Part shown: one piece after another, positions 722-57,884 of the stretch | Layout: each line of letters starts with the position of its first letter | How positions within the stretch are numbered: position 1 is the first letter of the stretch | From: a virus | Strand: one strand, 5' to 3' | Virus record (IMG/VR): IMGVR_UViG_3300009776_000830 | Length of the DNA: 64,000 nt | The notes under the pieces: generated by a model | What the model was told of the DNA's origin: nothing | What the model saw: only the letters and a program-made list of their open reading frames with translations | Databases searched by the model: none | Translations under genes and position numbers: made by a program

Positions 722-2323
722 ATGAAAAAAATGAATTTAATAAATTTAACGGAATTTGATAAATTTGTCGAAATGATGAACGAAAGCGTAAGTGGTTCAG
801 TACGAAGCCGTTTTGCCCCTTCGCCTACAGGCGCACTTCACCTTGGGGGGGTGCGAACCGCGTTATATAATTATCTTTTCGCAAAAAAACATAATGGTGT
901 GTTTTATTTAAGAATTGAGGATACTGATCAGGTTCGTTTTGTGCCAGGCGCCGAAGAATATATTAGAAAGTCTTTAGAGTGGTGTGGAATTTCACCGGAT
1001 GAATCTCCTTGGCAGGGTGGGCCTTACGGTCCTTATCGTCAATCAGAAAGATATGACATATATCCAAAATATGCTAAAGAATTAGTGGATAAGGGTAAAG
1101 CCTATTATTGTTTTGACACACCAGATGATATAGAAAATATGAAATCTAAACTCTTAGAACAGGGAGTTGCTTCACCTCAATATGATGCTAACACCAGAAT
1201 GATGATGAAAAATTCTCTAACTCTTTCAGCAGATGAAGTTCAACATTTATTGGATTCAAAAGCTCCTTTTGTCATTAGAATAAAGTTTCCAGAAGACACA
1301 CAAATAGTTGTTAATGATATAATTAGAGGAACTGTTGTTGCCAACACAAACACATTGGATGATAAAGTTTTATTCAAATCAGACGGACTACCTACTTATC
1401 ACTTGGCTAATGTTGTTGATGATCATTTAATGAAAACATCGCACGTTATACGTGGAGAAGAGTGGTTGCCAAGTGCTCCGCTTCATTTCTTTTTATATGA
1501 GGCATTCGGTTGGGATACACCAGAATTTGCTCATCTTTCATTAATATTGAAACCAAGTGGGGCTGGAAAATTGAGTAAAAGAGATGGGGACGCTTTAGGA
1601 TTTCCAGTTTTTCCTTTAAAGTGGACGGATCCTAAAAATCCAGATGCCACATCAAAAGGATATAAAGACAGCGGTTATTTGCCTGAAGCTTTCATAAATA
1701 TGTTGGCTTTTCTTGGTTGGAATCCAGGAACAGAGCAAGAAGTTATGACAATGGACGAGCTCATACAATCTTTTTCATTAGAAAGATGTGGTAAAGCTGG
1801 AGCTCGTTTTAATATAGAAAAAACGAAATGGTATAACGGACAATATATTAGAAAAATGTCTGATGAAGAGGTTTTTGATGAATTAAAAAAATCACTGGAT
1901 GAAAGAGGAATAGATTTACCAGATGGAACTATAAAGAAAATGATAGAAATGAATAAGGGTAAAGTTAATTTTGTTTCAGATATATATGAAGCTTCTTTAT
2001 ATTTATTTGAAAAACCAGAAACATATGATAAGAAAACTGTCGAGAAGAAATGGACAGAAAAAAGCCCTGAGGTAATTTCTAATTTGAGAGAAGTTTTAGA
2101 AGGTGTCCACGATTGGTCAGGTGAAAATATTCAAAGAGCATTTGAAAAATATGTTAATGAAAATCCTGATTTGAATTTTGGTATGGTTGCTCCGGCATTG
2201 AGACTTGTTTTAACTGGTATGGGTAATGGTCCATCACTATTTGATATTATGGAAATCATCGGTAAAGAAGAAACGTTAAATAGAATGACAAATTATAATA
2301 TACAAGTTAAAAAGAAAAAATAG
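722..2323 (+). CDS. gltX: Glutamate--tRNA ligase (Bacteroidetes-type) with an extra N-terminal capsid-targeting-like leader
   Basis: RFAPSPTGALHLGG (HIGH), RIEDTDQ, HVIRGEEWLPS, GKLSKRDG (KMSKS), GFPVFPLKWTDP insert typical of Bacteroidetes GluRS. Confidence 0.97.
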   Translation: MKKMNLINLTEFDKFVEMMNESVSGSVRSRFAPSPTGALHLGGVRTALYNYLFAKKHNGVFYLRIEDTDQVRFVPGAEEYIRKSLEWCGISPDESPWQGGPYGPYRQSERYDIYPKYAKELVDKGKAYYCFDTPDDIENMKSKLLEQGVASPQYDANTRMMMKNSLTLSADEVQHLLDSKAPFVIRIKFPEDTQIVVNDIIRGTVVANTNTLDDKVLFKSDGLPTYHLANVVDDHLMKTSHVIRGEEWLPSAPLHFFLYEAFGWDTPEFAHLSLILKPSGAGKLSKRDGDALGFPVFPLKWTDPKNPDATSKGYKDSGYLPEAFINMLAFLGWNPGTEQEVMTMDELIQSFSLERCGKAGARFNIEKTKWYNGQYIRKMSDEEVFDELKKSLDERGIDLPDGTIKKMIEMNKGKVNFVSDIYEASLYLFEKPETYDKKTVEKKWTEKSPEVISNLREVLEGVHDWSGENIQRAFEKYVNENPDLNFGMVAPALRLVLTGMGNGPSLFDIMEIIGKEETLNRMTNYNIQVKKKK

Positions 2324-2324
2324 T

Positions 2325-2455
2325 ATGAAGTATATAAAATTATACGAGCAAAAGATTTTGAAAATGATTCCTGGGGAGAGGATACACCTCGTGAAAATAG
2401 TTTAATAGACATACTTAGAATGATATTTTATGGCATTCATATTTTTTTAATTTAA
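2325..2455 (+). pseudogene. Possible frameshifted small gene with CTS-like start
   Basis: ATG 2325 gives MKYIKLYEQ then stops after 26 aa; the -1 frame continues DFENDSWGEDTPRENSLIDILRMIF, resembling the acidic DPFGED motif of other small genes. Confidence 0.3.
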
Positions 2456-2590
2456 GGATTCAATTTTCATTTTCTCATCTACTACACCATAATCAACTGG
2501 CTGATCAATATCAACCAAATTGTTGGCAATCAACCAACTAAAAAACATGTCAGAAATAATCTGTTCGATTGGTTTGTCAAAATTTTCCAT
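2447..2590 (-). CDS. Small hypothetical protein (47 aa)
   Basis: Manual translation MENFDKPIEQIISDMFFSWLIANNLVDIDQPVDYGVVDEKMKIESLN, A-rich leader, downstream of and co-oriented with 2652..4016. Confidence 0.5.
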   Translation of the reverse strand: MENFDKPIEQIISDMFFSWLIANNLVDIDQPVDYGVVDEKMKIESLN

Positions 2591-2651
2591 TTTTGTTTGT
2601 TTTAAATGTTATACAAAAATAGAAAAAAATTTCAGAAATAAAAAAAATAAA

Positions 2652-4016: not shown

Positions 4017-4111
4017 AATATATTCTTTTGTTTTTTGAATATTTTATTTATATATATAAAAAATATTGAGTCAAAAATTTAATATATAACATAACAAATA
4101 ACATCAATTAA

Positions 4112-4897
4112 ATGATCGATAAGTTTATACAATTCAATGAGTCAAGGAGATCTAAAAAAAGAAGATTTCATGGAATAGAAAGAAATTATAATAGATATAA
4201 TAGAAGTTTAGAGGAATCTTCACCAGAAAATGGCATGAAACTTGATGTTTCTCCACGATTTAAGGCTGTTGTAGAAAAGATGGTCGGAATTGGTGGCCTG
4301 ATAGCTAAAAATCTTTTAGAAGAAATAAATAAAAAAGAAAGACTGTTTAAAATATCTTATATAGATATATCTAGAAATCTAGATATGTTGACATATTTAC
4401 CTTTATCTGAAAAAAACTCTGGAACCGATCCTTATAAAAATCCAAAAAGAATTGGTTCTAAAATATATAAGGTCATAAGAATGCTTTTCGAAAATAGTGT
4501 CACAAAAGAAGAAATTCAAAAATTTGTATCTGTTTTTAAAAAGGTTTGTAGTTCCGATCCAGAACGACCTTCTCCAAAACCAAAAACTGAAGTTTCAGGT
4601 GTCAAAGAAGACAAAAAAACAAATAATGAGATAATATTCAAATTAATTGAAGACACTATAGAAAATAAAATTAAGTGGGAGACAGTACAGAACACAGATA
4701 ATCTAGAAAGTTATAGGACCATTGTTAATATAACAAATAATAAAAAATTAGAAATTGATGTGTTTATAATGAAAAAAAATATTGATCTCAGTAGTTTATC
4801 TATATTTTATATAATTAATAAAAATAATAATTTTATAAAAAGTATAAAATTTTCTGAAATAAAAGAATTTGAAGATTTGATTGAATTAATTAGATAA
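4112..4897 (+). CDS. Hypothetical protein, paralog of 5234..5887, shares its N-domain with 11243..12520; CTS-like start
   Basis: MIDKFIQFNES start; SPRF/SYID/DMLTYL domain; TAATATATA at 4080. Confidence 0.8.
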   Translation: MIDKFIQFNESRRSKKRRFHGIERNYNRYNRSLEESSPENGMKLDVSPRFKAVVEKMVGIGGLIAKNLLEEINKKERLFKISYIDISRNLDMLTYLPLSEKNSGTDPYKNPKRIGSKIYKVIRMLFENSVTKEEIQKFVSVFKKVCSSDPERPSPKPKTEVSGVKEDKKTNNEIIFKLIEDTIENKIKWETVQNTDNLESYRTIVNITNNKKLEIDVFIMKKNIDLSSLSIFYIINKNNNFIKSIKFSEIKEFEDLIELIR

Positions 4898-4934
4898 AAT
4901 ATTTTGATTAAAATTATTTAATATATAAATCTAT

Positions 4935-6071: not shown

Positions 6072-6290
6072 ATGGAAAAAACCTTTGAAAGATTTCTGAA
6101 TATTTTTAAGGAAAAATCTTGTGACGACGATGATATCGCTGAAAAAATATATAAACACATTCAGGAAAATGATATTTTTGTGAATAAAGATATTCGTGGT
6201 TATCATTTTCATATTTTGTTAAATGAGACGGAAAATGATAGGGAAGATCCGTTTAATGAAGACTCAGCAAATTCTATTGAGATTTCGTAG
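6072..6290 (+). CDS. Small hypothetical protein with CTS-like start and EDPFNED motif (possibly truncated)
   Basis: MEKTFERFLN start; ORF track. Confidence 0.5.
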   Translation: MEKTFERFLNIFKEKSCDDDDIAEKIYKHIQENDIFVNKDIRGYHFHILLNETENDREDPFNEDSANSIEIS

Positions 6291-6541: not shown

Positions 6542-6916
6542 ATGAAAACATATTTAGAATTTTTAAATGAACAAGCCGCTCCAGCACCCGCTCCAGCACC
6601 CGCTCCAGCACCCGCTCCAGCACCCGCTCCAGCACCCGCTCCAGCACCCGCTCCAGCACCCGATCCAGCACCGCCCGCTCCAGCCACACAAATCCCAAAA
6701 AGAACAACTTCTTATGGTGGGAATTTAGCGAGAGCTAATGATGATAAGGTTCATGAAATAATATATAAATTAACACCTCAAACAAAAACTGATCTTCAAA
6801 ATGTTTATAAGAAAGTATTAGACGAAATCCATAAGACATTTAAAGATGATCCATCTATGACTACAAGAGATATTGCAACTGCTGTAGGAAGTATAATGTA
6901 TAATCAGCAGGGATAA
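6542..6916 (+). CDS. Putative internal head protein with T4-type capsid-targeting sequence and (Pro-Ala)n linker
   Basis: Starts MKTYLEFLNE (7/10 identical to the T4 IPII/IPIII CTS MKTYQEFIAE), followed by a PA repeat. Confidence 0.7.
   Translation: MKTYLEFLNEQAAPAPAPAPAPAPAPAPAPAPAPAPAPAPDPAPPAPATQIPKRTTSYGGNLARANDDKVHEIIYKLTPQTKTDLQNVYKKVLDEIHKTFKDDPSMTTRDIATAVGSIMYNQQG
6578..6673 (+). repeat. 12-bp tandem repeat GCTCCAGCACCC x7 plus one variant, encoding (APAP)n
   Basis: Read directly from the sequence. Confidence 0.95.
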
Positions 6917-15068: not shown

Positions 15069-15323
15069 TTATTTGCCAATTTTATTTAGTAACTCTTGAA
15101 TTTTTTTATCTATTTGATATTCATATTGCGGATATCTATCTTTAATTTTTTCTAATTTTTCAATAGTGACATATACAAAATCAGCCATTTCAACACCTAT
15201 TCCATCAAATATTTCATCATAAGACTCGTCTTCAATATCTTTAATGATTTTTTTTATATCTGGTTCATTTATTGATGATGCCATCTGTTCAAATTTTTTT
15301 AAATGTTTGAATTCTTTTTTCAT
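15069..15323 (-). CDS. Small CTS-bearing protein
   Basis: MKKEFKHLKKFEQMASSINE; TAATATATA box at 15339-15347 on the minus strand. Confidence 0.7.
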   Translation of the reverse strand: MKKEFKHLKKFEQMASSINEPDIKKIIKDIEDESYDEIFDGIGVEMADFVYVTIEKLEKIKDRYPQYEYQIDKKIQELLNKIGK

Positions 15324-15364: not shown

Positions 15365-18300
15365 TTAATAATAAGTAGATGTGCTTTTTGTTCTTATGAA
15401 ATAATCTTTATCCCAAGAAGATTTGAATATAAATCGATCTGAATATCCATATCCATATTCATCTATTCTTGGATATATTAAATATGCTTCCAGCATATTG
15501 TCCAAAAAGTTCTTGTTCTCATTCACTTTTGAATAGATGATTTCATCTATTTTACCAAAGTTTGTCAGAGATGTATCAAATTTATAATTGTTATCAAAAT
15601 AAACTTGATTTGAATAAGTGTATATTCTGTTTTCGATTTCATAATAAGCCGTAATAGTAATATAATCTATAGCAGCAATAGTTATACCATTTTGATCAGA
15701 ATCATTATGTATTTTTAACTGTAAGTCTAGAGCAAAATTATCACTTAATAGATCATCAATAGTAATTGGATTTGGATCATCCCATAAATCGGTTGGTCCT
15801 CCATAGACTATTTCTGTTTTACCTGTTCCCCAGTTATCTGATAGGGCTTTATTAGAATAATATTGTAATCCATTTTTTAACATAAATTGATTATCAGAGC
15901 AATATATATTGGATGTGTTGTAATTAGCTTTTCTCATCATTTTAACTTCAACTCCCAATAGTGTTATTATTGATGTGGCGCCAGATGGCATTGAGCTGAA
16001 ATTTATGCCAGACAAACTTAAAATTGGTGTTAAAAATTCATTTGTTGATGGCGGGGCTTTAAATTCTATAGGATAATCTACAGGGCTTCTATTTAATGAT
16101 CCTATTATGGTGTTATTATAATCTTCACTGGCAATCATTCTACCTGGCGCTATTTGTGGTGTTGAATATTGATATCCAGATTCGGCACTATTTATACAAC
16201 TAAAATATATTTTTAATTTGAAATCATCTATCTCGCACATAGGAGCAATGGAATCCTCCCCTTCATTGTGAATATCAAACATTAAGTTCAATCCAAAATT
16301 TGAATCTATTAAATCATTAACAGTTATTGAAGTGCCCCATAGATCATCTTGGCCACCATATGTTATTGTTTCTTCAGTGGTTGACCAATTATTTGGGTTA
16401 GCTTTATTTAATCCGCCTATTGTTAGTTCAACAATTTGATCCACACAAAAATTTGTTGCTGAATCATTAGAAGATTTTCTTTTTAATTGAATTTCAATTC
16501 CAACTATTTTTTTATTGTTTCCACCAATAGTTTCTGGACCAGAGCAAGGAAATAGAATTGGATCTACAAAGTTAGATAAAGCTAATCCGAATTCTTTGAA
16601 TGTCAGTGTGGGCGAGTTAAAATCAGACACTCTATTTGGCACAGTACAAGTTATAAATTCATATGCCCCAGATTGGTTAGATGCTATATTTACATCAAAA
16701 ACTATTTCACCATTTATATCTTGTTCGTATTCTTTTGGAACAGATGTTAAATATCCATCGACAAAAACAGAAGAATAGTCGATGTCAAAATAGAAATATC
16801 CACCCTTGAAAAGATCAATATCTTTAAATATTGGTTCATAGTACCCTAAATATCTATAAATTTGAACTTTATATGACGATGATTCATCAAATGTTAAAAC
16901 AGTCGCACCATAATCATTATCTATGGAATCAATGTAAAAGGGATCAGTCCAATAACAATCGTTATTTAATTCGATTTCAGTTGGAAATTCAGCATTTATA
17001 ACAAAATTCGTATAAGCGTAAGGCCAATCTGGTATTTGTGTCATTGTTGAGTTGGTTGTATCATTGATATATGTTCCACCATTATATAGCTCGTCGTTTA
17101 TTTCTCTTATACAATAATATTTTACTTTTATTCCATAATCCCCATTATAATCATTTAGAGCCATAATAAAATTGGATGCTATAAAAATATTTGGGTTATA
17201 GTAATTTGTTATGCCGGTATCTCCAAATAGATCTTTACCATAATACAGACCGTCTTTTTGTTCGTATAAAGACACATCATTCAAACGGTAAGTGTCACCA
17301 AAATGTATGCTAGTATTTAATATTATTAGGACATTTTTATATTTCTCGTTTAATATTACATTGATACAATTTTCAGATGTGTTTATTAGATTATTTGGAT
17401 CAAATATTCCAAAAGTTGGAGATGGATTATAATTTTCATTCAGAACGATAGAAAATTTATAACCATTAAAATCTTTGTTTCCATACAATATCTTTTTAAC
17501 TACACCACCTTCAATATAAATGTTTTTAACTTCTTTTATTTTAAATTTAATACCTTTAAATAAAGTGTTTGAATAAACATTTTCATCTCCACCATTAAAA
17601 ACTGAGTATTTATCGAAGTTTTTAAAATATATTATACCATTGTCTTCGTATTTCATTTTATTTTTGAAAAAATAAGTAAAATAGTCAAATGACAAATTAA
17701 AATATGATTCGACATCAAATCTTTTTACACTATTATCCAAATAGTCGTCTTGTTGTATATTGGTTGATTGATTTTTATAATAAACATAGTTTGATGTGTC
17801 TCCACTATAAAACGTTCCCAGCCTATAAAAATAATCTAAATTTTTAGATAATATTTCTGGATAAGTCAATAAAGGATTTGATGTTCTGTTGAAAATTCCA
17901 CCAGCTTCATTATTATTATTTAACTTATATGGATAATCAGAATGACTTATTGATCCAACAAATCCCCATTTCACAATAGATTGATTTTTTCTCCATATTT
18001 CATTTAGATCGTATATGTCTTCAACCGTGCCATCCTCTAATGTCATTTTATTGTTTGAGCCCGTACTCACTATTTCATATAACTCATCATCCGCAATATA
18101 CTCTGATGATACATTTTCAATTTTATCTTGATTTTCAGATCCATATCCACCTAACCTTTTTTCTGGTGGAATCGAATTATCGTTATAATCATAAGTGTAC
18201 AATTTTTCTTCTGTCGTGTCAACGTATTGTGTTTGCTCGTAATCAAAATCAGAGTATTTAGTATTCACTCTATCATAATCGAAATCTTTTATATCAGTAA

Positions 18301-20185
18301 ATTTCAATCGATAAACAGGAAATGTTGTTGGAGTGCTGCCAGTTAAATTGACATAAAGTTTCTTATAATATTCTGAGTTTTTCCCAACTATCCAATATTC
18401 AATATATGTGTCACTTAAATTGATTCCATAATCACTTTGTATATAATAACATTTTCTATGTTTTCCGTTAGAGTCTTTCATTAAAGTTTCTATACTATCT
18501 CCTTCATAATATTTAATGACGTGATAATTGCCATCTATATTAATTAAATATAAATCGCCATACATATATTTTATTTGTCCGCCAATTAAATATATGTCAC
18601 ATCCTTCTTCATATTGATCACTAACTTCACCATTAATATTTGTTATAAGTAGCTCGAAAACACCACTAATAGCATCATATGATATAATTTCAGCTGTAAA
18701 ACTTTTCGTTTTATCCTTTCTACTAACAACTTTAACAAACTGACCAGCTTGAAATATGTCTCCTACTGTATCACCAGTTATGAATATTGTTGTGCCTGTG
18801 TCTGAAACAGTTACACCAGTATCAGTTGTATATCCCGAGTAAGTTATTCTATATTTATCTATGAAGAAAGTGTCATCTGTAACACCAGTTGAATCAACTA
18901 TATGAGGTCTTATGACATTGTAATTATCTTTATATTCTATATTGACTGTTTTGATGTTTGTATATCCTGTGTTCCAAAATTCATCCATTATGTCATCGCT
19001 GATAATCTTATACATCCACCTGTCGTGTTGATATATTCTTTTAACGGGATATAAACCAGATATCACTTTTTTTCTTTGAAGATCATTTGAGTTATCAAAG
19101 AAAATGTAATAATCTTTTGTATCATCCCATTCCTCAATAAAAGGATTTACTGATATGTATTTTGTGTTACCCGAGAAATAAATGTTGTAGAAATCTTCCA
19201 ATATACAATTCTCTTCAGTAACGCCAGTTCCTAATATTATATTATTTAACAAAGTAGTTCCAGAAGCCATCGTTGGAGTTACATATGAAGTTAGTGAACA
19301 AACGAAATCTAAATTATCTATATAGAATCCATAATAACGATTCATCGAATATTTCCTTAGAGACGTTGGAGTGGCTGGCGTGTCATCGAATAAGAATTTT
19401 AAATTTAATATGTTTGGAAAAATTAGGTCGTTTCTTCTAAATCCTTCGGTTATAAATTTTTCAAATCTAAAATGTGGAGTTTCAATACTATTTCTATCCT
19501 CCATATACAATGTTTTCTGAGTGTATATTCCTGTATTATAATCCATTCCATACCAACTAGATAACTCGGTTTTCTCTGGATTATATTCAAATGGAGCCTT
19601 TGGAAAACGATTGTTGTTCAAATAATTATTATATAACCACACACCCAGATTGGAGCTATAATTCATATCGAAATATTTTACACATTTCCATTTATCAATT
19701 ATCTCTGTTTTAAAATTATCTTTGTTCAAACTATTTAATTGATAATTATTTGTCACATCAGAACCATAACTAGACGGGTCGTCCACTCTCAATATAATAA
19801 AACCACTTGGCAAATAATTTTTTCTAATATAGAGTGGGGCAAAATATTCAAATTCTTCACTATACCATTTATCTTCAATATAAGCGGCTCCAGCTTGATA
19901 CATAGTATCAAATTGTTTAGCGAAATCAGTTTGAACAACTTGATTATCTTTATCATATTTTACATCATATGCTAATTCTTTTGGAAGTCTTTTATAAAAA
20001 TATGGTATTCTGCTTTCGAGTAACGAATTTTTATTTAATTTATAATGTTTATAATTAATGTTACTCAGCTCTGTATTTGTATTAAAACTTTCCATAAAAA
20101 GTTCATACTTAGAGTTGACAACCACTTTAAAATTAGTTGTTAGAAGAGGATTTGTTCTAAGTAATTGAAAACTTTTATTTATCAA
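15365..20185 (-). CDS. Very large putative virion structural protein (baseplate/tail), 1606 aa
   Basis: Size, beta-rich Y/N/T composition, duplicated ~110-aa C-terminal module (YGG.DLW), location among structural genes. Confidence 0.6.
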   Translation of the reverse strand: MINKSFQLLRTNPLLTTNFKVVVNSKYELFMESFNTNTELSNINYKHYKLNKNSLLESRIPYFYKRLPKELAYDVKYDKDNQVVQTDFAKQFDTMYQAGAAYIEDKWYSEEFEYFAPLYIRKNYLPSGFIILRVDDPSSYGSDVTNNYQLNSLNKDNFKTEIIDKWKCVKYFDMNYSSNLGVWLYNNYLNNNRFPKAPFEYNPEKTELSSWYGMDYNTGIYTQKTLYMEDRNSIETPHFRFEKFITEGFRRNDLIFPNILNLKFLFDDTPATPTSLRKYSMNRYYGFYIDNLDFVCSLTSYVTPTMASGTTLLNNIILGTGVTEENCILEDFYNIYFSGNTKYISVNPFIEEWDDTKDYYIFFDNSNDLQRKKVISGLYPVKRIYQHDRWMYKIISDDIMDEFWNTGYTNIKTVNIEYKDNYNVIRPHIVDSTGVTDDTFFIDKYRITYSGYTTDTGVTVSDTGTTIFITGDTVGDIFQAGQFVKVVSRKDKTKSFTAEIISYDAISGVFELLITNINGEVSDQYEEGCDIYLIGGQIKYMYGDLYLINIDGNYHVIKYYEGDSIETLMKDSNGKHRKCYYIQSDYGINLSDTYIEYWIVGKNSEYYKKLYVNLTGSTPTTFPVYRLKFTDIKDFDYDRVNTKYSDFDYEQTQYVDTTEEKLYTYDYNDNSIPPEKRLGGYGSENQDKIENVSSEYIADDELYEIVSTGSNNKMTLEDGTVEDIYDLNEIWRKNQSIVKWGFVGSISHSDYPYKLNNNNEAGGIFNRTSNPLLTYPEILSKNLDYFYRLGTFYSGDTSNYVYYKNQSTNIQQDDYLDNSVKRFDVESYFNLSFDYFTYFFKNKMKYEDNGIIYFKNFDKYSVFNGGDENVYSNTLFKGIKFKIKEVKNIYIEGGVVKKILYGNKDFNGYKFSIVLNENYNPSPTFGIFDPNNLINTSENCINVILNEKYKNVLIILNTSIHFGDTYRLNDVSLYEQKDGLYYGKDLFGDTGITNYYNPNIFIASNFIMALNDYNGDYGIKVKYYCIREINDELYNGGTYINDTTNSTMTQIPDWPYAYTNFVINAEFPTEIELNNDCYWTDPFYIDSIDNDYGATVLTFDESSSYKVQIYRYLGYYEPIFKDIDLFKGGYFYFDIDYSSVFVDGYLTSVPKEYEQDINGEIVFDVNIASNQSGAYEFITCTVPNRVSDFNSPTLTFKEFGLALSNFVDPILFPCSGPETIGGNNKKIVGIEIQLKRKSSNDSATNFCVDQIVELTIGGLNKANPNNWSTTEETITYGGQDDLWGTSITVNDLIDSNFGLNLMFDIHNEGEDSIAPMCEIDDFKLKIYFSCINSAESGYQYSTPQIAPGRMIASEDYNNTIIGSLNRSPVDYPIEFKAPPSTNEFLTPILSLSGINFSSMPSGATSIITLLGVEVKMMRKANYNTSNIYCSDNQFMLKNGLQYYSNKALSDNWGTGKTEIVYGGPTDLWDDPNPITIDDLLSDNFALDLQLKIHNDSDQNGITIAAIDYITITAYYEIENRIYTYSNQVYFDNNYKFDTSLTNFGKIDEIIYSKVNENKNFLDNMLEAYLIYPRIDEYGYGYSDRFIFKSSWDKDYFIRTKSTSTYY

Positions 20186-20201
20186 TCTATTAAATTATTT
20201 T

Positions 20202-23200
20202 TTATGCCAAAACATCAGTTTCCCCATTAATTGTTAATGTTGATGCATTACCTTTTAAGAAATTTCTAAATCTATTTATTTTAAATGTTATTGTAAATTG
20301 ATAAACACTATTATCAGATAGCTCCATCCAAGATTTTATTTTTCTTGTTACTGAAGTTGAGCTACTTGATGGAGTATATGTTGAATCACTAGTGCTTTTA
20401 AATTTGAAATATATTCTCAGTCCTATATTAAATTTAGATTTTGGTGTTAGTACTTTTGTTTTATCTTGACCGGTTTCAACCAAAACATTTAAATCTGGTA
20501 AATATGGAAAAACTGCCGCCATGAGATAATTGTTTATTAATTCATCATCATCCCATATAAGATCATTTACACCCACATTATTTGTTGTTCCAGATGAACC
20601 GACATTCCAATTACTGCTCGATAATATTCCAAATGTTTGATTCATATTTGTGGATGTGAACCCACTTGATAAAAATGCCCCAGCATCTTTATCTGAGAAC
20701 CATATGAATTGATTGTCTTTTTGAACGTGTAGTGTGCTATCTGAATCCACCATAAATATCTTATGTTGGTCTCCTCCAGTGGCGGTGTAATATGGCGCAG
20801 TAGTGGTGCCTGTATAACTTCTTTGTGATAAGAATCCGAGATTTCCACTTTGAGCTGTATTTTCTATTGATATAACATAATCATCTATAATATATTTATT
20901 ATTTAAATAAGTTCTCGTTCCAGTTGTCGCTATGCCATAATCTTCACATTCAACAGTGACAATTGTAGATGAATTATTTGTTATATCTTTAACTAAAGTT
21001 GATTTTTTAAATAATGACACTTTAATATTGCCTTTAACACCAGCAATGGTTTCTTCGAGTTTTATGATTCTGTTCGTGAGAACAGTAAGATATTCATATA
21101 AAGTTTGATTTAGATTTGATGAATCTTTAAAACTAACCTGTATAGCATGATCTGTGTGAGCATAATAGTCTTGATTCAAGTAGAAACTGTCTTCGATGTG
21201 TTTGTATACGCCTTTACTGTTCAGAGTATTATCCATATTTACCATTGTTGTGTCTTGTTCGGCCTCTTTGGATATAAAATCTTTATCTGAAAATGTATCT
21301 TTTAAATCATCTGGAAATTCTACAGTTAACACGTCACTCCAATCCGATTCGATTAATGAATCGGGCCAACCTACTTCAGATATAGATTTTATTCTTATTT
21401 CGACCTTTTCGTCTGGTTGTATTGGTATGTCCAGTTGGTTGATATTCACTGTATCAGCATCAGAAACATCCTCAACCATCCAATACCATTGTTTTGATTG
21501 TGCGTCCCAATGTCTTTTTCTAACATCAGTTAATATAGATACCCAGTTTGAAAAATTAGCATATTTTGGCGTGGTTGTTGGGTTCTCAGTTGTTGTTGAA
21601 ACATTTGTTGCTATAACGGGTGTGGATTTACCAGTGTAAACATTTGCTGTTGATGCGGCTGATTGAGATGATGATATAGCTGCTGTTGCCCCAGCTTGAT
21701 TTTCAGTAAATGTGCCAGTGTTTCTAAAAGGGTATGGCATAGGATTTATTGTTGTCGTGTTAGATGTTGCTGGTTTTGATGTAACAGTGTAAGTAAATGT
21801 CTCTGTGTTATTTGAATTGCCAGTTTTAGAAGCATATCTATATTCTATTCTAAATTGTATAACGTGTTGTGGAACACTTTTATCTGTTAATATAGGCTCG
21901 GGTATAGACCAAAAACCTCTGACTCTGTATTTTGGAGCAACATCATTATTAACATTGCTATTTATTTCGTTGATTTGTGATAAACTGGAAGATAAACTTT
22001 TCGTAGCTACATCTAAATCTGATTTTAATTTATTTATTTCATCAACAATAGATTGTTTTTCTGTAACTGTCAAACCACCACTATATAATTTTGATGTCTT
22101 TGATGTGATGGCTGTATTTAATTGAGATATTCTGGTTTTTATGGTGCTCTTTTCAGAATGTAATTTTTTCAATGAATCTTGGTCCACACTATCAGTTAAG
22201 TGTCTATTTATCTGAACAACTTTAAAATTGTCCTGCACTAGAACAGGAGCATTTGGTGGATAACCATAACTCGATGGTATCACTTTTTTTATCATATCTT
22301 TTAAAAGTGTGCCATAATCATAGACTTGCTCGACATAATAATTGGCTAAATTTATGTTATTATTAGAGTCTAACAACAAGTCATTTGTATATAAACATAT
22401 TCCTTTGCTCCAAATGTTACCAACTATATTATCATCAGTATTTATTGGCTTGATGAATATGATGATATATTCATCAAAACCAACATTTATTTGAACTTTC
22501 TTATCGTTTGATATATCACTATAATATTTCAAGACATTTGTGCCAACAACTACTGGATCATATCCTTCAACTACTTCGAGTCTTATTTTTGTGTTGGATG
22601 AATCAGTATTTACTTCAACCACTCTATATCTCGATGATGCGTTTAATTTGTTGATTATCAATTCATCTCCTATAACTAGAGCTTTTATTGTGCCATCTTG
22701 TCCATAATATTTTATGTCATTGAGATGATACCACATTTTATTATTTATATCGTCTATTTCAACTTTGATGACTGAAAAAACGCCATAATAATTTAGATTC
22801 TTTAATTTTAAATCATATATTTGCTCATCATAAGGCTCTACGGTATCAATATAAATACCATCATTACTTGGATTATTATACCAAGCTATGAAGTCTGTTA
22901 TATTTATATCCGAGCGATTTAAATATGTGGATATGAAACTATTATAAGATCTCAAACCAGCCTCAGTTAAAGAATTATCATCGTTCCTGACAAATCTCAG
23001 GATATATCTACGGGATAATACTTTATTTACTTCTTCAGCCACTTTATCGGTTAGATCTATTGTTACAGCGAGCATTGGATTCATCAAAGATTCAAAGAAA
23101 TGGTTGTTTATGGGTGAGAATGTTGATACTTGATTTATACCAGATACTGGCATTGGCTCACGATTCAAATCCGATGTCATTATTCTTTTGTAAGACTGAC

Positions 23201-23456
23201 CGTCTCGCAAATATGTATATCCATCTATAGACGCTAAACGTTTCATATTTTGATTCAAGGCATCTATCTGGGTTTTCAAATTACCAACTGTTGGCATAGA
23301 ATAAGATCTGACAACGCCATTATCGTCATAAGCCACTTTAACAGAGGAATCTGTGCTCTCGACGAGGTCGTTTATTTTTGTTAATATTTCAACACAATTT
23401 TTATTTAAAATTGTCACCTTTTCGGCTAAAGAAACAAATGAGTTAATAGGCTCCAC
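20202..23456 (-). CDS. Large putative virion structural protein, 1084 aa, with central coiled coil and FN3-like segment
   Basis: Heptad-like region (LHSEKSTIKTRISQLN...), VRIKSISEVGWP, T/S-rich linker. Confidence 0.55.
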   Translation of the reverse strand: MEPINSFVSLAEKVTILNKNCVEILTKINDLVESTDSSVKVAYDDNGVVRSYSMPTVGNLKTQIDALNQNMKRLASIDGYTYLRDGQSYKRIMTSDLNREPMPVSGINQVSTFSPINNHFFESLMNPMLAVTIDLTDKVAEEVNKVLSRRYILRFVRNDDNSLTEAGLRSYNSFISTYLNRSDINITDFIAWYNNPSNDGIYIDTVEPYDEQIYDLKLKNLNYYGVFSVIKVEIDDINNKMWYHLNDIKYYGQDGTIKALVIGDELIINKLNASSRYRVVEVNTDSSNTKIRLEVVEGYDPVVVGTNVLKYYSDISNDKKVQINVGFDEYIIIFIKPINTDDNIVGNIWSKGICLYTNDLLLDSNNNINLANYYVEQVYDYGTLLKDMIKKVIPSSYGYPPNAPVLVQDNFKVVQINRHLTDSVDQDSLKKLHSEKSTIKTRISQLNTAITSKTSKLYSGGLTVTEKQSIVDEINKLKSDLDVATKSLSSSLSQINEINSNVNNDVAPKYRVRGFWSIPEPILTDKSVPQHVIQFRIEYRYASKTGNSNNTETFTYTVTSKPATSNTTTINPMPYPFRNTGTFTENQAGATAAISSSQSAASTANVYTGKSTPVIATNVSTTTENPTTTPKYANFSNWVSILTDVRKRHWDAQSKQWYWMVEDVSDADTVNINQLDIPIQPDEKVEIRIKSISEVGWPDSLIESDWSDVLTVEFPDDLKDTFSDKDFISKEAEQDTTMVNMDNTLNSKGVYKHIEDSFYLNQDYYAHTDHAIQVSFKDSSNLNQTLYEYLTVLTNRIIKLEETIAGVKGNIKVSLFKKSTLVKDITNNSSTIVTVECEDYGIATTGTRTYLNNKYIIDDYVISIENTAQSGNLGFLSQRSYTGTTTAPYYTATGGDQHKIFMVDSDSTLHVQKDNQFIWFSDKDAGAFLSSGFTSTNMNQTFGILSSSNWNVGSSGTTNNVGVNDLIWDDDELINNYLMAAVFPYLPDLNVLVETGQDKTKVLTPKSKFNIGLRIYFKFKSTSDSTYTPSSSSTSVTRKIKSWMELSDNSVYQFTITFKINRFRNFLKGNASTLTINGETDVLA

Positions 23457-23586
23457 GCGATTTAAAATTATTTTTTTATAGGAAAAATCCTAATTTCTTA
23501 TTATATATAAAATTTGAGCAACTCCTTTTTTAAAAAATTCACAAAAAATATTAATATATACATTTACAAAAAAAAATCAAAAAATT

Positions 23587-24387
23587 ATGAAACATTTGAA
23601 ATTATATGAGAATTTTAGATTAAATGAAGAATTTAGTAGTGATACAGCATCATTGATCGCAGTAATTATTCAGACTGGACTTTTAGCTGGAGTTGCAACT
23701 GGGCTTAGTATAGCAGCAATCAAAACAGCGATATCTAATTTTATTCATAATAGAAAAGTTAATAAAATATACAATAATTTAATGAAATATTTAAAAGATC
23801 CTGTCATCAAGCCGTTGATAGTCGAATATAGTTCTTTGTGTGTTGTAGGAGAAAAAGAGGTAGGTGATAGAAAACAGGATTATTACAGTTATGAAAGATT
23901 AAAAGAATTGTCATTGACCATAAATAATAGATTAAAAGAATTGATGACTCCAAAAGAATATGATGAACTTGAAAAATTTAGAACATATATAAAAAGTAAA
24001 TTGAAAACGAAGTATTCAGAAGAAGAACCAGAAGAATATTTTAAACCTCGCAATTATGTTCCAGAATGGGATAAAGATACTATTGTTGATGTTTTTTTGA
24101 GAAATGCCAGTAATTGGTTTGATTATGAAATGAAAGCTATAAATTGGAGAAGACACGCGAGAGATATAATAGAAAAAAGTTGGATTATAAAAAATGACAA
24201 TATTATTTTGGAAGCCGAAGAAGAGGAAGGTGATGATGATGTCATTTATGGAGATAATGAAATTATAAATGAATTTGTAAGAGATTTAACAGAAGAATGG
24301 TTCGAAGAGGGAGCTTGGGCTCGTAATTTTAGAAGATATTTAACAGATATGATAATAGAAAAAGGATATGAAATAAGTAAAAAATAA
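23587..24387 (+). CDS. CTS-bearing protein with a predicted N-terminal membrane segment
   Basis: MKHLKLYENFRLNE then hydrophobic LIAVIIQTGLLAGVATGLSIAAI; TAATATATA at 23552. Confidence 0.7.
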   Translation: MKHLKLYENFRLNEEFSSDTASLIAVIIQTGLLAGVATGLSIAAIKTAISNFIHNRKVNKIYNNLMKYLKDPVIKPLIVEYSSLCVVGEKEVGDRKQDYYSYERLKELSLTINNRLKELMTPKEYDELEKFRTYIKSKLKTKYSEEEPEEYFKPRNYVPEWDKDTIVDVFLRNASNWFDYEMKAINWRRHARDIIEKSWIIKNDNIILEAEEEEGDDDVIYGDNEIINEFVRDLTEEWFEEGAWARNFRRYLTDMIIEKGYEISKK

Positions 24388-24397
24388 ATAAAAAGAT

Positions 24398-38543: not shown

Positions 38544-38774
38544 ATGAAAAACATTAAAACATTTGATGAATTTTCTTTAAATGAGAAAAATAAACCTTCG
38601 GCAGGTTTGACAAAAAAAGAGAAATCAGAAATCGTGAAGAAGGCCAAAAGAGGCGAAGATATAGGTAAGCCAGGTGAACATTTCAAAGATGTTGTAAAAA
38701 AGGCTAAGAAATATGGCGCTAAAGATCCAGAAGCAGTAGCTGGAGCAGCCCTTTGGAAAAATATTAAAAAATAA
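38544..38774 (+). CDS. Small basic CTS-bearing protein
   Basis: MKNIKTFDEFSLNE; TAATATATA at 38516. Confidence 0.75.
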   Translation: MKNIKTFDEFSLNEKNKPSAGLTKKEKSEIVKKAKRGEDIGKPGEHFKDVVKKAKKYGAKDPEAVAGAALWKNIKK

Positions 38775-40014: not shown

Positions 40015-40269
40015 ATGACTTATAACTATACTTTAGATAATTTTTTAGCTATACCAGATAATAGCGATGACAGGCTTTTTATTTACGATAAGAATAGAAA
40101 CTTTGTCGATAGTGTTATACCAAGCTTATCTTATTATTTTGTTCGAAATAATTGTTTGGTCATAAAGATAACCAATAGAAATGATATTATATTAAGTTTC
40201 AAGGATTTGGTTACAGCTAAACAGGCTTTATCGAAATTGGATCTAGTGATAAATGAAAATTTTGCTTGA
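40015..40269 (+). CDS. Hypothetical protein
   Basis: 84-aa ORF with TATA-rich leader. Confidence 0.65.
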   Translation: MTYNYTLDNFLAIPDNSDDRLFIYDKNRNFVDSVIPSLSYYFVRNNCLVIKITNRNDIILSFKDLVTAKQALSKLDLVINENFA

Positions 40270-40742
40270 TGAAGCATTTGAAAATATACGATCAGTTTAA
40301 TTTTGATGATTTTTCTGAAGAAGATCTTTTTGGAGAAGATTATGGGTCATTAACAAAATTTGAAGATTTGGTTGGTGTAACTATAATAGAAATAATTGTT
40401 GATGATCTAAAACAAAATATGATCTTTAAGTTGAAAAATGGTGACGAATATATATTATATCATCAACAAAATTGTTGCGAACAAGTGGAAATAGATGATA
40501 TAAATGGTGATTTGGATGATTTATTAAACACTCCTATATTAAAAGCGAGTGAAGACACAAACAGAAATGAACCGAGATCACCATCTGATGAAAGTTTCAC
40601 CTGGACATTCTACAATTTATCAACAATAAAGGGTTATGTTACAATAAGATGGTATGGATCTTCTAATGGATGGTATTCAGAAAAAGTTGATTTCGCGAAA
40701 GTTGAGAGAGATAATAATAATAATAGAATAATTCCAGGATAA
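40266..40742 (+). CDS. Conserved phage protein (YHxQxCCE..SxTWTFY..RWYGxSNGxYSE) with CTS-like leader
   Basis: Motifs in translation; MKHLKIYDQF..EEDLFGED leader. Confidence 0.75.
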   Translation: MMKHLKIYDQFNFDDFSEEDLFGEDYGSLTKFEDLVGVTIIEIIVDDLKQNMIFKLKNGDEYILYHQQNCCEQVEIDDINGDLDDLLNTPILKASEDTNRNEPRSPSDESFTWTFYNLSTIKGYVTIRWYGSSNGWYSEKVDFAKVERDNNNNRIIPG

Positions 40743-40746: not shown

Positions 40747-41022
40747 TTATTCTTTATAAATGACACAATAAGGCTCATTGTGTGTTAGTTGAATTATTTT
40801 ACGAAATGCTGTTCTAACATCACCATTTTCAACAAGAGGATTTTCAACATCAATTAATTTTTTTAACTCTTTCAAGTTCAAATCCCAAGGATCTCCTTTG
40901 AAAATAATTCTATCTGTTTTTGCGTTAAAGATATATCCCAAAATAAATTCGTTTAATTTATCTTGATTTTCAAATGAGCAATAAGTTATTTTTTCTTTAA
41001 GATTTAATTTCACAATATACAT
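40747..41022 (-). CDS. Hypothetical protein
   Basis: 91-aa ORF. Confidence 0.6.
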   Translation of the reverse strand: MYIVKLNLKEKITYCSFENQDKLNEFILGYIFNAKTDRIIFKGDPWDLNLKELKKLIDVENPLVENGDVRTAFRKIIQLTHNEPYCVIYKE

Positions 41023-41115: not shown

Positions 41116-42477
41116 ATGAAAATTAATTTTAATGATTTCATAAACGAGGAGCTATCAATGATGTCAAATAAAAAATTGAGAGACGCCATACACGACATAG
41201 TAACTAATTTGGATAAAGACCAATCAATAGATATAGAAGAGCTTTCGAGCGAGCTTTTATTGAAATATAAAATCACAATTAGTCCTAAATTTTTAGATGA
41301 ATATCTAAATGATTTCAATAAAATAAAAAGAGGTTATAATGTTTCAGACACTATTTTTTCTAGACAAGATGCTAGATGGTTGAATATCAAAGATAAAGAT
41401 GATACTAAAGAATTGAGAAATAACTTATATTATCAGAGACCATCTTTGGCGAAACATAAAGATAGAATGGTGAAAGATATAATAGAAAAAAGATTGGATG
41501 ATGCTTATAAATCTGGCATGAAAGATTTAAAATTATCAGAAGAAACCATTAAAAAAACTTTTATTTTACAAGATCCGAATGATGCTAAAAATATAATAAA
41601 GTCGATTTATGAAATGGTGAACATTCAGATGAAATATAAAAACACAAAAGAGAATTGTTGGAAGATGATGATCATTATGGGATATAATAGAATGAAATTG
41701 GATACGAAAAAGAATTATTTTGATTTAGCGCCAGAATCTATAAAAAAAGAATATGAAGAAATCGGAAAAATAAATCTAACGCTAGAAAAAGAAGATGTAA
41801 GGAAGCCAGATCCAATATTAATGGAAGACGATACGAAAAAATCCACCAAAAATGATATGACATTAAAGGAATGGAGAGAAAAAAATAATCCAGTTCCTTC
41901 ACCTAAGAAACCAGCTCTTTTGACTAAAACTGCGGATATTAAAGATTTGGATGAAATCGTTGCTAAAAATTTAGATACCAATAAAATATTTAGAGCTGAA
42001 GTTTATGATGATCCGAAAGATATATCCAGTATGAACTTATCTATTGATACAGAATATGCTAATTTATTTACATTTATGGTACCCTGTGTAAAAATATTTT
42101 ATAACACTAATATCACAATATACTGGGATGAAATTGGTGAGATGTGGTGTTATAGTGAAAAGTTGAAAAAGTATGATTATATTTATGATGAAGATAATGA
42201 AGGTAATGAAAAAAAGCCAAAAATGTCAAATAAGATCGAGACAGGGACAAATATAAAACCTGGCGATGTGCTGATCTGTCAAAAACACGACTTTTATATA
42301 TCAGAACCAATTAGAAAAACATTGGAACTGAAATTAGATCAAGGAAGGATTGCGCCAGTTGTCGGTGAAAAAAATTTCGATTATTATGTGTATGGAACAG
42401 CCAATAAAAATTTTGTGTATAAAGCCTATCATTCAACAAAAGATGATAAGTGGCATATCGCTTCTTCACTTTTTTAA
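41116..42477 (+). CDS. CTS-bearing hypothetical protein
   Basis: MKINFNDFINE start. Confidence 0.75.
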   Translation: MKINFNDFINEELSMMSNKKLRDAIHDIVTNLDKDQSIDIEELSSELLLKYKITISPKFLDEYLNDFNKIKRGYNVSDTIFSRQDARWLNIKDKDDTKELRNNLYYQRPSLAKHKDRMVKDIIEKRLDDAYKSGMKDLKLSEETIKKTFILQDPNDAKNIIKSIYEMVNIQMKYKNTKENCWKMMIIMGYNRMKLDTKKNYFDLAPESIKKEYEEIGKINLTLEKEDVRKPDPILMEDDTKKSTKNDMTLKEWREKNNPVPSPKKPALLTKTADIKDLDEIVAKNLDTNKIFRAEVYDDPKDISSMNLSIDTEYANLFTFMVPCVKIFYNTNITIYWDEIGEMWCYSEKLKKYDYIYDEDNEGNEKKPKMSNKIETGTNIKPGDVLICQKHDFYISEPIRKTLELKLDQGRIAPVVGEKNFDYYVYGTANKNFVYKAYHSTKDDKWHIASSLF

Positions 42478-42490: not shown

Positions 42491-43075
42491 TTACCATTTT
42501 TCTTCCATAAAAGGATCATCATCTATGTTTGATTTCCATCTTTCGGCTTGTTCTTCGCTAAAAGATTTATCTCTAACACTTTTTATACTAAGAGGTTTAT
42601 AATCATACATATGATTAGGACTCAGTGCTCCCCATTCGCTTCCGTCTTTCATCACTTCGTCTTTTATTGATTCTTCCATTCTATTCAATAGAAGTTCAAG
42701 TTTTTTTCTTTGCTCTGGATCAAAAATATTCAATAATTCTTCTTTTTCTTTATCGACTTTCTCATCTCTAATAAATTCTTCTGTGATGTCTGTATCAAAA
42801 TGCGTCCACTCAACAAAGACTGAATTTTTAACATATTTTTTTAATTGTTTTTTCTGTTCATTTGTTAAATCTGATAATATTTCAAATAGCTCTTTTTTAT
42901 AAAATTTATTAGTTTTTAATTTGTTGATATATCTTTGTAAATCTGTTATCTTTCCAGGGATGTGTCTCGCTAAAAGCATTATTCCAAAAAAAGTCAACAT
43001 ACCAAGCACAAAACCGATCAATTCCGATAAGGTTTCTTCATTTAAAAATTCATCATATTTCTTTAATTTTTCCAT
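42491..43075 (-). CDS. CTS-bearing membrane protein ending DDDPFMEEKW
   Basis: MEKLKKYDEFLNE, TM segment LIGFVLGMLTFFGIMLLA. Confidence 0.75.
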   Translation of the reverse strand: MEKLKKYDEFLNEETLSELIGFVLGMLTFFGIMLLARHIPGKITDLQRYINKLKTNKFYKKELFEILSDLTNEQKKQLKKYVKNSVFVEWTHFDTDITEEFIRDEKVDKEKEELLNIFDPEQRKKLELLLNRMEESIKDEVMKDGSEWGALSPNHMYDYKPLSIKSVRDKSFSEEQAERWKSNIDDDPFMEEKW

Positions 43076-51864: not shown

Positions 51865-52266
51865 ATGAATTTGAAAAAATTTGAGGGATTCGATAATAAA
51901 AAAGATCTAGAGACATCGGTGTTACAAAATCTTCTTGAATTATCCAAGGATGAAAAAAAATTTGATAAAGCTGTTGTGGCTTTGTATATGAATAGTTCTA
52001 TATCAATGGAGGTTATAAACTCCTTTTACGAATCAATAGGTAGAAAATCTATATTGGAAGACGATCCATTTGGTGAAGATGCTGATTTACCAGCACCTCC
52101 AAGGCGATCACCGACACGATTTTTTGATGCTTGTCATACTACAACTACAAGAACAGTTGGTTGTGGTGGCGGCGCTGGTCAGGAAGCGGCTCATCGGCCA
52201 AGAAGAAGAGGAAGAGCTAGAGGTTTCGGAATAAGTTGTGGCGGCAATCAAGGAGGAGGATGTTAA
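51865..52266 (+). CDS. CTS-like protein with Gly/Cys/Arg-rich C-terminal tail (possible modified-peptide precursor)
   Basis: MNLKKFEGF, DDPFGED, C-terminal VGCGGG..ISCGGNQGGGC. Confidence 0.65.
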   Translation: MNLKKFEGFDNKKDLETSVLQNLLELSKDEKKFDKAVVALYMNSSISMEVINSFYESIGRKSILEDDPFGEDADLPAPPRRSPTRFFDACHTTTTRTVGCGGGAGQEAAHRPRRRGRARGFGISCGGNQGGGC

Positions 52267-53158: not shown

Positions 53159-53190
53159 TCTTTTGTTTTTTTATTGTCTATATAATTTTT

Positions 53191-56111: not shown

Positions 56112-56146
56112 AATAATTTTTTACTTTTGTAAAAATAAAAAAAAAA

Positions 56147-56943: not shown

Positions 56944-56957
56944 AGTTGGATTTTTTT
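56922..56957. terminator. Bidirectional terminator hairpin
   Basis: AAAAAAATCCAACT / AGTTGGATTTTTTT perfect 14-bp inverted repeat between convergent genes. Confidence 0.8.
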
Positions 56958-56976
56958 ATAATTTTTCAAGCCATTA

Positions 56977-57303
56977 TTAGAGATTTTCAAAAATGTTATC
57001 TAATTTTGATCTGTCTATAGTTCTTATATCTGAATTTTCTTCTTCTTCAAAATAATATGATAGATTTTGTATATCTATAACGATAAAATTCTTTTTATCA
57101 ACATCTTTAACTGCATCGTCTGCCGTAAAGCTATAATCGGTCAATTTATCAACGATGCCTTTATCAAACTTTATTTGAAATTTAAATTTATTCTCTTTTG
57201 AGAATTTTCTTTGTGGACCTGGTTCATTCATTTCAGCTGGAACAGGTTGAACATCAGCATTTTCATTCATAAAAGAATTATAATTTTTAATTATTTTTTT
57301 CAT
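56977..57303 (-). CDS. CTS-bearing small protein
   Basis: MKKIIKNYNSFMNE. Confidence 0.7.
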   Translation of the reverse strand: MKKIIKNYNSFMNENADVQPVPAEMNEPGPQRKFSKENKFKFQIKFDKGIVDKLTDYSFTADDAVKDVDKKNFIVIDIQNLSYYFEEEENSDIRTIDRSKLDNIFENL

Positions 57304-57323
57304 ATCTTTTTAATTATTTTTTT

Positions 57324-57884
57324 TTAACTTTTGAAAAAATCTTTAAATGATTTTATATTTTTAAAATTTTCTGTAATGTTCTTTTCATCATCATCCTCAT
57401 CATTGATCATTTCATCTTCTTGATCAATAACTCTATCGCCAGCTAGTGGATCTTCATCTTCATCATTTTCTTCTATATCATCTATATTGTCTTCTTCATC
57501 GTTCCAATCAAAATTTTCTTCATTATCGACTTCATCATCTTCAATTTCGTCGTCTATTTCCATATTTTTCAATATATCTTTCTTGGCTTTATCTTTATCA
57601 TTTTCATCTTTTAGTTCATCGTATATGTTAATTGCGTCTTTTTCATCTGATATACCAGCGGCTATTAACCTATCGTAATACTCAGGATTTTCGCTCAAAT
57701 GATCCATAGAGATTTCTGTAGCTATATCAGGATTACTAGTATGTTCTCTTTGAACGGCAGAACCTATAGCAATATCATCTGGATTAAAATCCTCGGGTCT
57801 TTTATTATCAGCTTTTCCACCAGGAATTCTATCTATCCATTTTCTATTGCCAAAATCAGTGAAATTAGTTATTATTTTACTCAT
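57324..57884 (-). CDS. DUF5661-like protein with long acidic tail
   Basis: IPGGKAD..REHTSNPDIATEISMDHLSENPEYY; D/E-rich C-half; TAATATATA at 57906-57914 on the minus strand. Confidence 0.7.
   Translation of the reverse strand: MSKIITNFTDFGNRKWIDRIPGGKADNKRPEDFNPDDIAIGSAVQREHTSNPDIATEISMDHLSENPEYYDRLIAAGISDEKDAINIYDELKDENDKDKAKKDILKNMEIDDEIEDDEVDNEENFDWNDEEDNIDDIEENDEDEDPLAGDRVIDQEDEMINDEDDDEKNITENFKNIKSFKDFFKS

Follow-up and report, generated by a model that had tools for sequence, protein, structure and literature searches.

Do unrelated proteins of a single phage carry a common label that sends them into the virus head? The question is raised by a 64,000-nucleotide (nt) stretch of viral DNA (IMG/VR record IMGVR_UViG_3300009776_000830; this whole stretch is hereafter called the window), in which a first-pass annotation had noticed, between positions 722 and 57,884, about 14 proteins that share an N-terminal motif resembling the capsid targeting sequence (CTS) of phage T4. 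The CTS and its cleavage by gp21 are textbook T4 biology. Our analysis indicates that this shared N-terminus, here called the tag, is probably a T4-type CTS fused to a prohead-protease site, through which many unrelated proteins would be loaded. The capsid-targeting proposal of the first-pass annotation is supported by the T4 architecture of the tag, the occurrence of its cut-site motif in relatives, its spread throughout the clade, its conservation in orthologues and a control with phage G.

A shared N-terminal motif on unrelated proteins

The motif takes the form (M-K-x-I/L-K)-x-[F/Y]-x-x-[F/Y]-x(0-5)-[L/I/M/F]-N-E at the protein start. All 14 N-termini are as first quoted and ten are strong cases, namely the open reading frames (ORFs) at 722, 4112, 6542, 15069, 23587, 24398, 38544, 41116, 42491 and 56977 (those at 15069, 42491 and 56977 on the minus strand), whereas three of the four weaker cases fit incompletely. 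Every one of the ten strong tags contains two aromatic residues three apart, followed by [L/I/M/F]-N-E finishing at residue 10-21. The ORF at 6072 carries an eleventh, variant tag that ends in F-K-E and matches the wider clade consensus (F..F....F-K-E). N-terminal enrichment, which the first-pass annotation had named as a check, was found: when aromatic-xx-aromatic-x(0-5)-hydrophobic-N-E had to end within the first 25 residues, 10 genes (11 hits) stood against 3 interior hits in a background of ~18,500 interior residues (42-fold; binomial P=6.9 × 10−15), the density ratio under a looser regular expression being 33-fold.

The tagged proteins had been called unrelated, and the mature parts of all 14 show no mutual BLASTP similarity at E<0.01; in size these mature parts extend from an enzyme of 512 residues down to basic ones of 62 and acidic ones of 64, and in two of the tagged window proteins a hydrophobic segment lies directly behind the tag. 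A six-frame scan of the window found no additional small tagged ORFs. Searches of the tagged proteins against PHROGs and Pfam assigned a function to none but a glutamyl-tRNA synthetase (GluRS) and a DUF7448 protein, and ESM Atlas searches with the 24398 and 41116 proteins returned low-confidence matches that gave no function.

The window and its relatives

The window has a GC content of 29% (26-32% along the sequence), with the exception of a collagen-repeat gene at its end (46% GC), and contains 64 called genes. A baseplate hub with a muramidase domain and further tail-module proteins are encoded, together with GluRS, SmpB, Hsp20, a SET-domain protein, an MT-A70 methylase, a radical SAM enzyme, a NadR-like protein, a TonB-dependent receptor, a NUDIX enzyme, RCC1-repeat proteins, two tRNA-Val genes and a topoisomerase II gene that is broken up by inteins and endonucleases. 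Among public genomes, the uncultured phage LR756501/LR756503 (735 kb) and genomes of 634-642 kb from the same study are the nearest; homologues of 44 of the 64 called window genes were found in LR756501, with 59% identity for the hub protein and 74% for GluRS. Judged by these homologies, the window is DNA of a Mahaphage-type huge phage related to LR756501. Genomes of the LR756501 group have been assigned to the 'Mahaphage' clade, for which Bacteroidetes hosts are predicted (Al-Shayeb et al., PMC7162821). Megablast of 10 kb of the window against a phage collection gave no match, and a related-locus search with the window's 38789 protein as query found no relative. No gp21-type protease, scaffold or capsid gene was seen in the window (Pfam was run on most of its genes), and the head module was therefore examined in the relatives.

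Genome-wide spread and the nucleotide-level alternative

The LR756501 genome was taken whole, with 1004 ORFs called. The end position of hydrophobic-N-E forms a sharp peak at residues 11-15 (51 genes, against ~7 per bin further inside). At the N-terminus, 74 genes carry aromatic-xx-aromatic-x(0-5)-hydrophobic-[N/K]-E (9.7-fold, P=3.7 × 10−46) and 61 the T4-spaced motif (6.5-fold, P=3.7 × 10−29); once obvious false positives are removed, ~79 genes (8%) are tagged, with starts such as MIKTFDEFINE, MKKYIEFINE and MVKRYKQFINE. M16-peptidase-like genes (51925 and 143234) and a few others matched the regular expression through internal family motifs and were dropped from the tagged set. Counting back from the terminal Glu as P1, the LR756501 tags have Ile, Leu or Val at P3 and Asn or Lys at P2, and a motif-free scan of all LR756501 ORFs likewise showed aromatics elevated at positions 5 and 8 and Glu at 11. 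When 78 tagged LR756501 proteins were aligned, the mean column identity was 5% and the consensus consisted of Y-x-x-F-x-N-E alone. Their Pfam families include GluRS, polyphosphate kinase 2 (PPK2), SAM methyltransferase, DeoC aldolase, radical SAM, nucleotidyltransferase and an Ig domain, most of the proteins having none.

A second relative, LR756504 (636 kb, 26% GC), has 35-40 tagged genes of the MKYLKKYNTFLNE type, the nearest to the window form (3.7-fold, P=2.3 × 10−11), and a metagenome contig with an orthologue of the 41116 protein has four more tags in a 21-kb piece of its 47.7 kb, two of them with Ile or Lys at P2. The N-terminal extensions described for phage ribosomal protein S21 (Al-Shayeb et al., PMC7162821) were considered as instances of the tag and rejected, the S21 proteins of LR756501 and LR756504 being 66-67 amino acids (aa) long and without an extension. 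In contrast to the relatives, Bacillus phage G (30% GC, no S77 hit), scanned across 400 kb, gave no N-terminal enrichment (ratios 0.5-1.2); a phage of equal GC thus lacks the pattern, and AT-richness is not its source.

This control bears on the proposal that the shared N-terminus has no protein function at all, and comes from a signal in the nucleotides, be it a translation-initiation region or a recombining cassette of promoter plus 5' end, or else is an artefact produced by choosing the longest ORF. A-rich starts behind a common promoter-like box would fit such an origin, as would the one public gene call that skips a tag: the database entry for the 41116 protein (P0001, 438 aa) starts at Met16 and omits it, although the orthologues are all called with the tag. 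This call suggests that annotation pipelines may under-report such leaders. Besides the absence of enrichment in the equal-GC phage, the codons themselves speak for selection on the protein: wherever Glu, Asn/Lys, Phe or Tyr is conserved in the tags of LR756501, its synonymous codons occur at genome-wide ratios, which argues against a nucleotide-level signal and already disfavours this origin. Orthologues vary conservatively (F/Y and L/I/V), and the GluRS orthologues differ in tag length and linker with the motif kept. We consider an origin of this kind very improbable.

The head module of the relatives and its putative protease sites

The first-pass annotation had also proposed locating the prohead protease gene; none is present in the window, but a gp21-type gene was found in LR756501, within a T4-like head module at 72-78 kb. 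Besides a portal gene (phrog_213, 1.7 × 10−66) and a gp23-type capsid protein gene (Pfam Gp23, 83 bits), this module includes at 73913-76336 the gene of an 807-residue protein, in which a head maturation protease occupies the first ~175 residues (phrog_207, 4.9 × 10−27). The protease part matches T4 gp21 in BLASTP (4 × 10−7), its GEFDHP and VSSR aligning with GELNHP and VSSR of T4, and its homologues carry PF03420. The remaining ~630 residues are scaffold-like, with ~15 tandem 11-residue repeats centred on EYIAE(N/H), in which I-A-E is the same ending as that of the T4 CTS, and with a Gln/Ala-rich acidic stretch. The fusion of protease and scaffold is kept in more than 100 homologues of 650-830 aa, some of which are annotated at source as 'DivIVA' or 'regulator of replication initiation timing'.

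The ending of the tag recurs throughout these head proteins. Among the best 120 capsid homologues, all full-length members have EYAE-x-H-x-[M/L/I/V]-N-E-N-[V/I]-x-Y ~12 residues ahead of a conserved NGMG, and a T4-like propeptide would be expected to end at this hydrophobic-N-E site, which in LR756504 reads I-H-E. The protease homologues (n=120) retain [I/L/V]-N-E near residue 19 and have an invariant (K/R)-(S/T)-(L/I/M)-N-E-S right behind the catalytic domain, followed in most by G-F-N-E. In the alignment with T4 gp21 the invariant site falls on ...ITES, close to the C-terminus, the end at which gp21 is known to be processed (PMC9026906). Three more hydrophobic-N-E sites lie in the scaffold-like region of the LR756501 protein, with seven in the protease-scaffold protein as a whole. 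From its presence at the capsid propeptide end, at the flanks of the protease and in the scaffold, the tag end can be recognized as the clade's motif at the expected cut sites of a gp21-type protease.

A separate observation concerns the capsid protein. A 74-aa ORF of the window (58023-58247, + strand), conserved in LR756501 (230334-230558, 62% identical), has a start, MISLNQNGMGRIVPP, that mimics the predicted start of the mature capsid protein (...NE/NVGYATLNQNGMGRVLAPV; here and below the slash marks the predicted end of the leader), and a tagged 84-aa protein of LR756501 (730457) contains ...ANGNGMGNIVAPTV. By this resemblance, both may be small mimics or competitors of the N-arm of the capsid protein.

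Likeness to the T4 capsid targeting sequence

The T4 start invoked by the first-pass annotation is correct: in NC_000866, MKTYQEFIAE opens both ipII and ipIII, and ...FLTE closes the gp23 propeptide ahead of AEIGG. The first 10 residues of IPIII are enough for incorporation, and within the T4 CTS residues 4 and 7 are the main determinants of targeting, whereas processing relies on residues 8 and 10 (PMC9026906); the CTS of IPII and IPIII is removed by the gp21 prohead protease (Mullaney & Black 1996, reviewed in PMC9026906). Counted back from the Glu, these four residues are P7, P4, P3 and P1, the four best-conserved positions of the window tags. The exact T4 spacing, [F/Y]xxF-hydrophobic-x-E, is found in ORFs 6542, 41116, 42491 and 56977, the aromatic pair of the others being moved by 1-3 residues. 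The gp21 consensus is (L/I)-x-E, and all ten strong tags end in [L/I/M/F]-N-E.

The two systems thus share a 10-20-residue N-terminal tag on unrelated proteins, in which P7 and P4 are aromatic, P3 is hydrophobic and P1 is Glu; like T4, relatives of the window encode a gp21-type protease and gp23-type capsid proteins. They differ in several respects. P2 is Ala in T4 and almost always Asn in the clade (Lys in relatives), and the clade tags often begin M-K-x-(I/L)-K, with 1-10 additional residues; tagged genes number 10-11 in the 64 kb and ~35-80 per related genome, compared with a handful in T4; a tRNA synthetase and proteins bearing hydrophobic segments are among the clade cargo; protease and scaffold form a single fusion protein; and the clade tag, unlike that of T4, is known from sequence alone. 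New relative to T4 are therefore the fixed Asn/Lys at P2, the scaffold-fused protease, the far larger tagged set (4-17% of genes) and the tRNA synthetase as cargo.

Other leaders resemble the clade tag less closely. T4 gp24 (MAKINELLRE) and Alt (MELITELFDE) also have short N-terminal leaders that end in hydrophobic-x-E on head-located proteins, but these lack the aromatic pair, and each is particular to one protein, with no common consensus. The phiKZ-like giant phages similarly pack many proteins into the head and have them trimmed by a protease related to gp21; their ejection proteins (SPN3US gp245, phiKZ gp175) have long propeptides cut after A/S/G-x-E, and the propeptides of these phages differ from the clade tag in being mostly 80-160 residues long, with no shared short consensus and a small rather than hydrophobic P3 (PMC5694885). 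Encapsulin cargo-loading peptides and the encapsulation peptides of bacterial microcompartments are likewise short, modular and able to load unrelated enzymes into a shell, but they differ in position and sequence, they are not removed by a protease and their shells are not phage heads, so that the analogy is a functional one.

Proposed mechanism and competing explanations

On the T4 model, ATATATA-box promoters common to head and tail genes would transcribe the tagged genes, and the P7/P4 aromatics of the tag would bind the scaffold core of the assembling prohead, trapping the protein inside. The scaffold-fused gp21-type serine protease would then cut behind the Glu of hydrophobic-(N/K)-E, a motif that would also serve as its cut site in the capsid-protein propeptide and in the scaffold. 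The mature cargo, comprising GluRS, small basic and acidic proteins and proteins with a hydrophobic segment, would remain in the head and enter the host with the DNA. We infer that the tag binds the scaffold, that the tagged proteins are cut, packaged and injected, and that the window's own phage possesses the same head module.

Several points weigh against loading into the head. The protease, scaffold and capsid genes lie outside the window, so that we infer the head module of the window's own phage, as we do the cutting and packaging of the tagged proteins; the Pfam S77 score of the LR756501 protease (24.1 bits) is slightly below the cut-off of 27; and the alignment of the capsid site with T4 LTE-65 relies on weak N-terminal similarity. 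The predicted cargo set is unusually large, at 4-17% of genes, and it includes metabolic enzymes (GluRS in the window; PPK2, DeoC aldolase, radical SAM and methyltransferase in LR756501) as well as proteins with hydrophobic segments, which are untypical capsid contents.

The nature of the cargo could instead point to a different address, such as a membrane-bound assembly site, another part of the virion or an intracellular phage compartment; the hydrophobic-x-E ending, for all its likeness to a protease site, would then not imply entry into the head. A hydrophobic segment stands immediately behind the tag in two tagged proteins, many tagged LR756501 proteins are ordinary cytoplasmic enzymes, and the genes at 38544 and 40269 lie within the baseplate module. 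Against such a destination, the same motif is invariant at the capsid propeptide end and recurs around the head protease and scaffold, conservation falls on the positions that were mapped for capsid targeting in T4 (PMC9026906), and no alternative sorting machinery was identified; we judge it unlikely.

The cleavage-site part of the tag, hydrophobic-N/K-E, is its most conserved part, as would be expected of a purely removable propeptide, cut by the head protease or another one for late activation or timing without any packaging, and enzymes such as GluRS might require timing rather than delivery. T4-type proteases, however, act within the prohead. The aromatic pair at P7/P4, moreover, is as strongly conserved as the cleavage site, and in T4 these are targeting residues (PMC9026906). 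A propeptide without a loading role appears quite unlikely, and the capsid-targeting reading is the one that we retain.

Modularity and co-regulation of the tagged genes

The tag had been proposed to be a module appended to varied proteins, a view borne out by GluRS, which is tagged in three phages, and by a split gene that acquired a new tag. The GluRS gene of the window (722-2323, + strand) starts with a 21-residue tag (722-784, ...TEFDKFVEMMNE/SVSG), behind which Pfam tRNA-synt_1c begins at residue 27. The N-terminal extension reads ...TEFDKFVEMMNE in the window and ...TEFEQFRLLMKE in LR756501; in LR756504 it is ...KKHLKKDYSDFLKE plus a linker, longer and otherwise unrelated to the window form, and a gut-phage GluRS fragment is without an extension. 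By this comparison, GluRS is the clearest case of modular tag addition. Orthologues of the 4112, 24398 and 38544 proteins in LR756501 are tagged as well.

The split gene corresponds to a single 273-aa gene of LR756501 (338997-339818), whose N- and C-parts are represented in the window by two minus-strand genes, 57324-57884 and 56977-57303. The upstream gene is a doubtful case of the tag, with a conserved MSKIITNFTDFGNRKW but without the Glu, and its LR756501 orthologue is of identical form. The downstream gene, encoding an acidic 108-aa protein, has its own start and its own tag with exact T4 spacing (57262-57303, MKKIIKNYNSFMNE/N). Elsewhere, a minus-strand window gene (26436-26912) is untagged and its LR756501 homologue (727415) has the tag-like start MIKTFEAFEMD, a gain or loss of the tag between relatives.

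The tagged genes also tend to share an upstream element. In LR756501 the portal, protease and capsid genes are preceded at ~30 nt by an ATATATA box, and such a box is found ≤60 nt upstream of 37 of the 79 tagged genes compared with 185 of the 917 untagged ones (Fisher P=3.9 × 10−7). The window box (usually TAATATATA, 22-35 nt upstream) precedes 7 of the 10 tagged and 19 of the 54 other genes (P=0.045), two of the three tagged genes without a box being the second gene of a boxed pair; it also stands ahead of baseplate and fibre genes. Examples of TAATATATA/ATATATA boxes in the window are located at 4080, 6513, 15347, 23552, 27413, 38516, 41083, 43106, 51838, 57914, 59829 and 59849. The box is a candidate late promoter, reminiscent of the TATAAATA of T4. 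Tagged genes of LR756501 are furthermore clustered, with 16 adjacent pairs observed and 6.1 expected.

Implications for huge phages

A literature search found no paper connecting the CTS with huge phages or megaphages, which is not proof of absence; the paper describing the Mahaphage genomes mentions neither prohead nor packaging (PMC7162821). More tentatively than the capsid-targeting reading itself, we suggest that Mahaphages, the largest phages known, might deliver a starter kit of ~35-80 different proteins per virion type, which a single T4-like tag would address and the head protease would set free. Among them would be GluRS, PPK2, methyltransferase, small DNA-binding-like basic proteins and membrane-inserting proteins. 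If so, heads of the gp21/gp23 type would have possessed the tag since ancient times, and sequence alone would reveal which proteins uncultured phages inject. A tag that works as in T4 would serve as a sequence-only marker of virion-packaged, and probably injected, proteins in uncultivable phages, and would assign a location and a timing to dozens of genes of unknown function per genome. Huge phages would then be predicted to supply the cell, alongside the DNA, with a tRNA synthetase of their own and with other enzymes, which would partly explain the large size of their capsids and genomes, and a ready-made loading tag would be at hand for engineering phages of Bacteroidota.

Individual tagged genes and neighbouring features

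The remaining strong tags stand on proteins of varied size and charge. The basic 261-aa protein encoded at 4112-4897 (+) starts MIDKFIQFNE/S (tag 4112-4141), and its LR756501 orthologue starts MSLKGYKKFNE/A. An Ala-Pro-rich 124-aa protein (6542-6916, +) has the tag MKTYLEFLNE/Q (6542-6571), with 7 of 10 residues identical to the T4 IPII/IPIII CTS; the Ala/Pro-rich LR756501 counterpart at 670230 reads ...NYLQFINE/A. The acidic 84-aa protein at 15069-15323 (−) carries ...KHLKKFEQMASSINE/P (15264-15323), and its gene has an ATATATA box 22 nt upstream. Two consecutive genes follow on the plus strand: 23587-24387 encodes a 266-aa protein with a hydrophobic segment behind its tag (23587-23628, MKHLKLYENFRLNE/E), and 24398-25420 a 340-aa protein (tag 24398-24454, ...LKNFGEFKDSLNE/E) with ...IRHFEEFKDAVNE/E in its LR756501 orthologue at 460850. 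This tagged pair adjoins minus-strand genes for two very large proteins (15365-23297; 1576 and 1031 aa; phrog_29329), and the four-gene arrangement at 15365-25420 is preserved in LR756501 (460850-470223).

Within the baseplate module, a small basic 76-aa protein (38544-38774, +; mature pI 10) has the tag MKNIKTFDEFSLNE/K (38544-38585), and its C-terminal part is homologous to a tagged LR756501 protein (126399). The 453-aa protein at 41116-42477 (+) has a tag of exact T4 spacing, MKINFNDFINE/E (41116-41148), and [F/Y]-x-x-F-[L/I/V]-N-E is kept in all seven of its database orthologues (37-61% identical). Its neighbour at 42491-43075 (−), encoding a 194-aa protein, likewise combines exact T4 spacing (MEKLKKYDEFLNE/E, 43037-43075) with a hydrophobic segment behind the tag.

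The variant F-K-E tag belongs to a 72-aa protein (6072-6290, +; tag 6072-6113, MEKTFERFLNIFKE/K) and fits the hydrophobic-[N/K]-E consensus of LR756501. The DUF7448 protein (40269-40742, +), also encoded within the baseplate module, is a partial case that has the first half of the tag (MKHLKIYDQF...) and no hydrophobic-N-E, its Pfam domain beginning at residue 32. Doubtful as well is the gene at 51865-52266 (+), with the F..F pair alone (MNLKKFEGFDNK). Finally, a 91-aa protein encoded at 40747-41022 (−) has a conserved ...Y-x-x-F-x-N-Q-D-K-L-N-E at residues 14-25; it occurs in LR756501 (80% identical) and in a metagenome relative, and the match is either a longer leader or a coincidental internal one.

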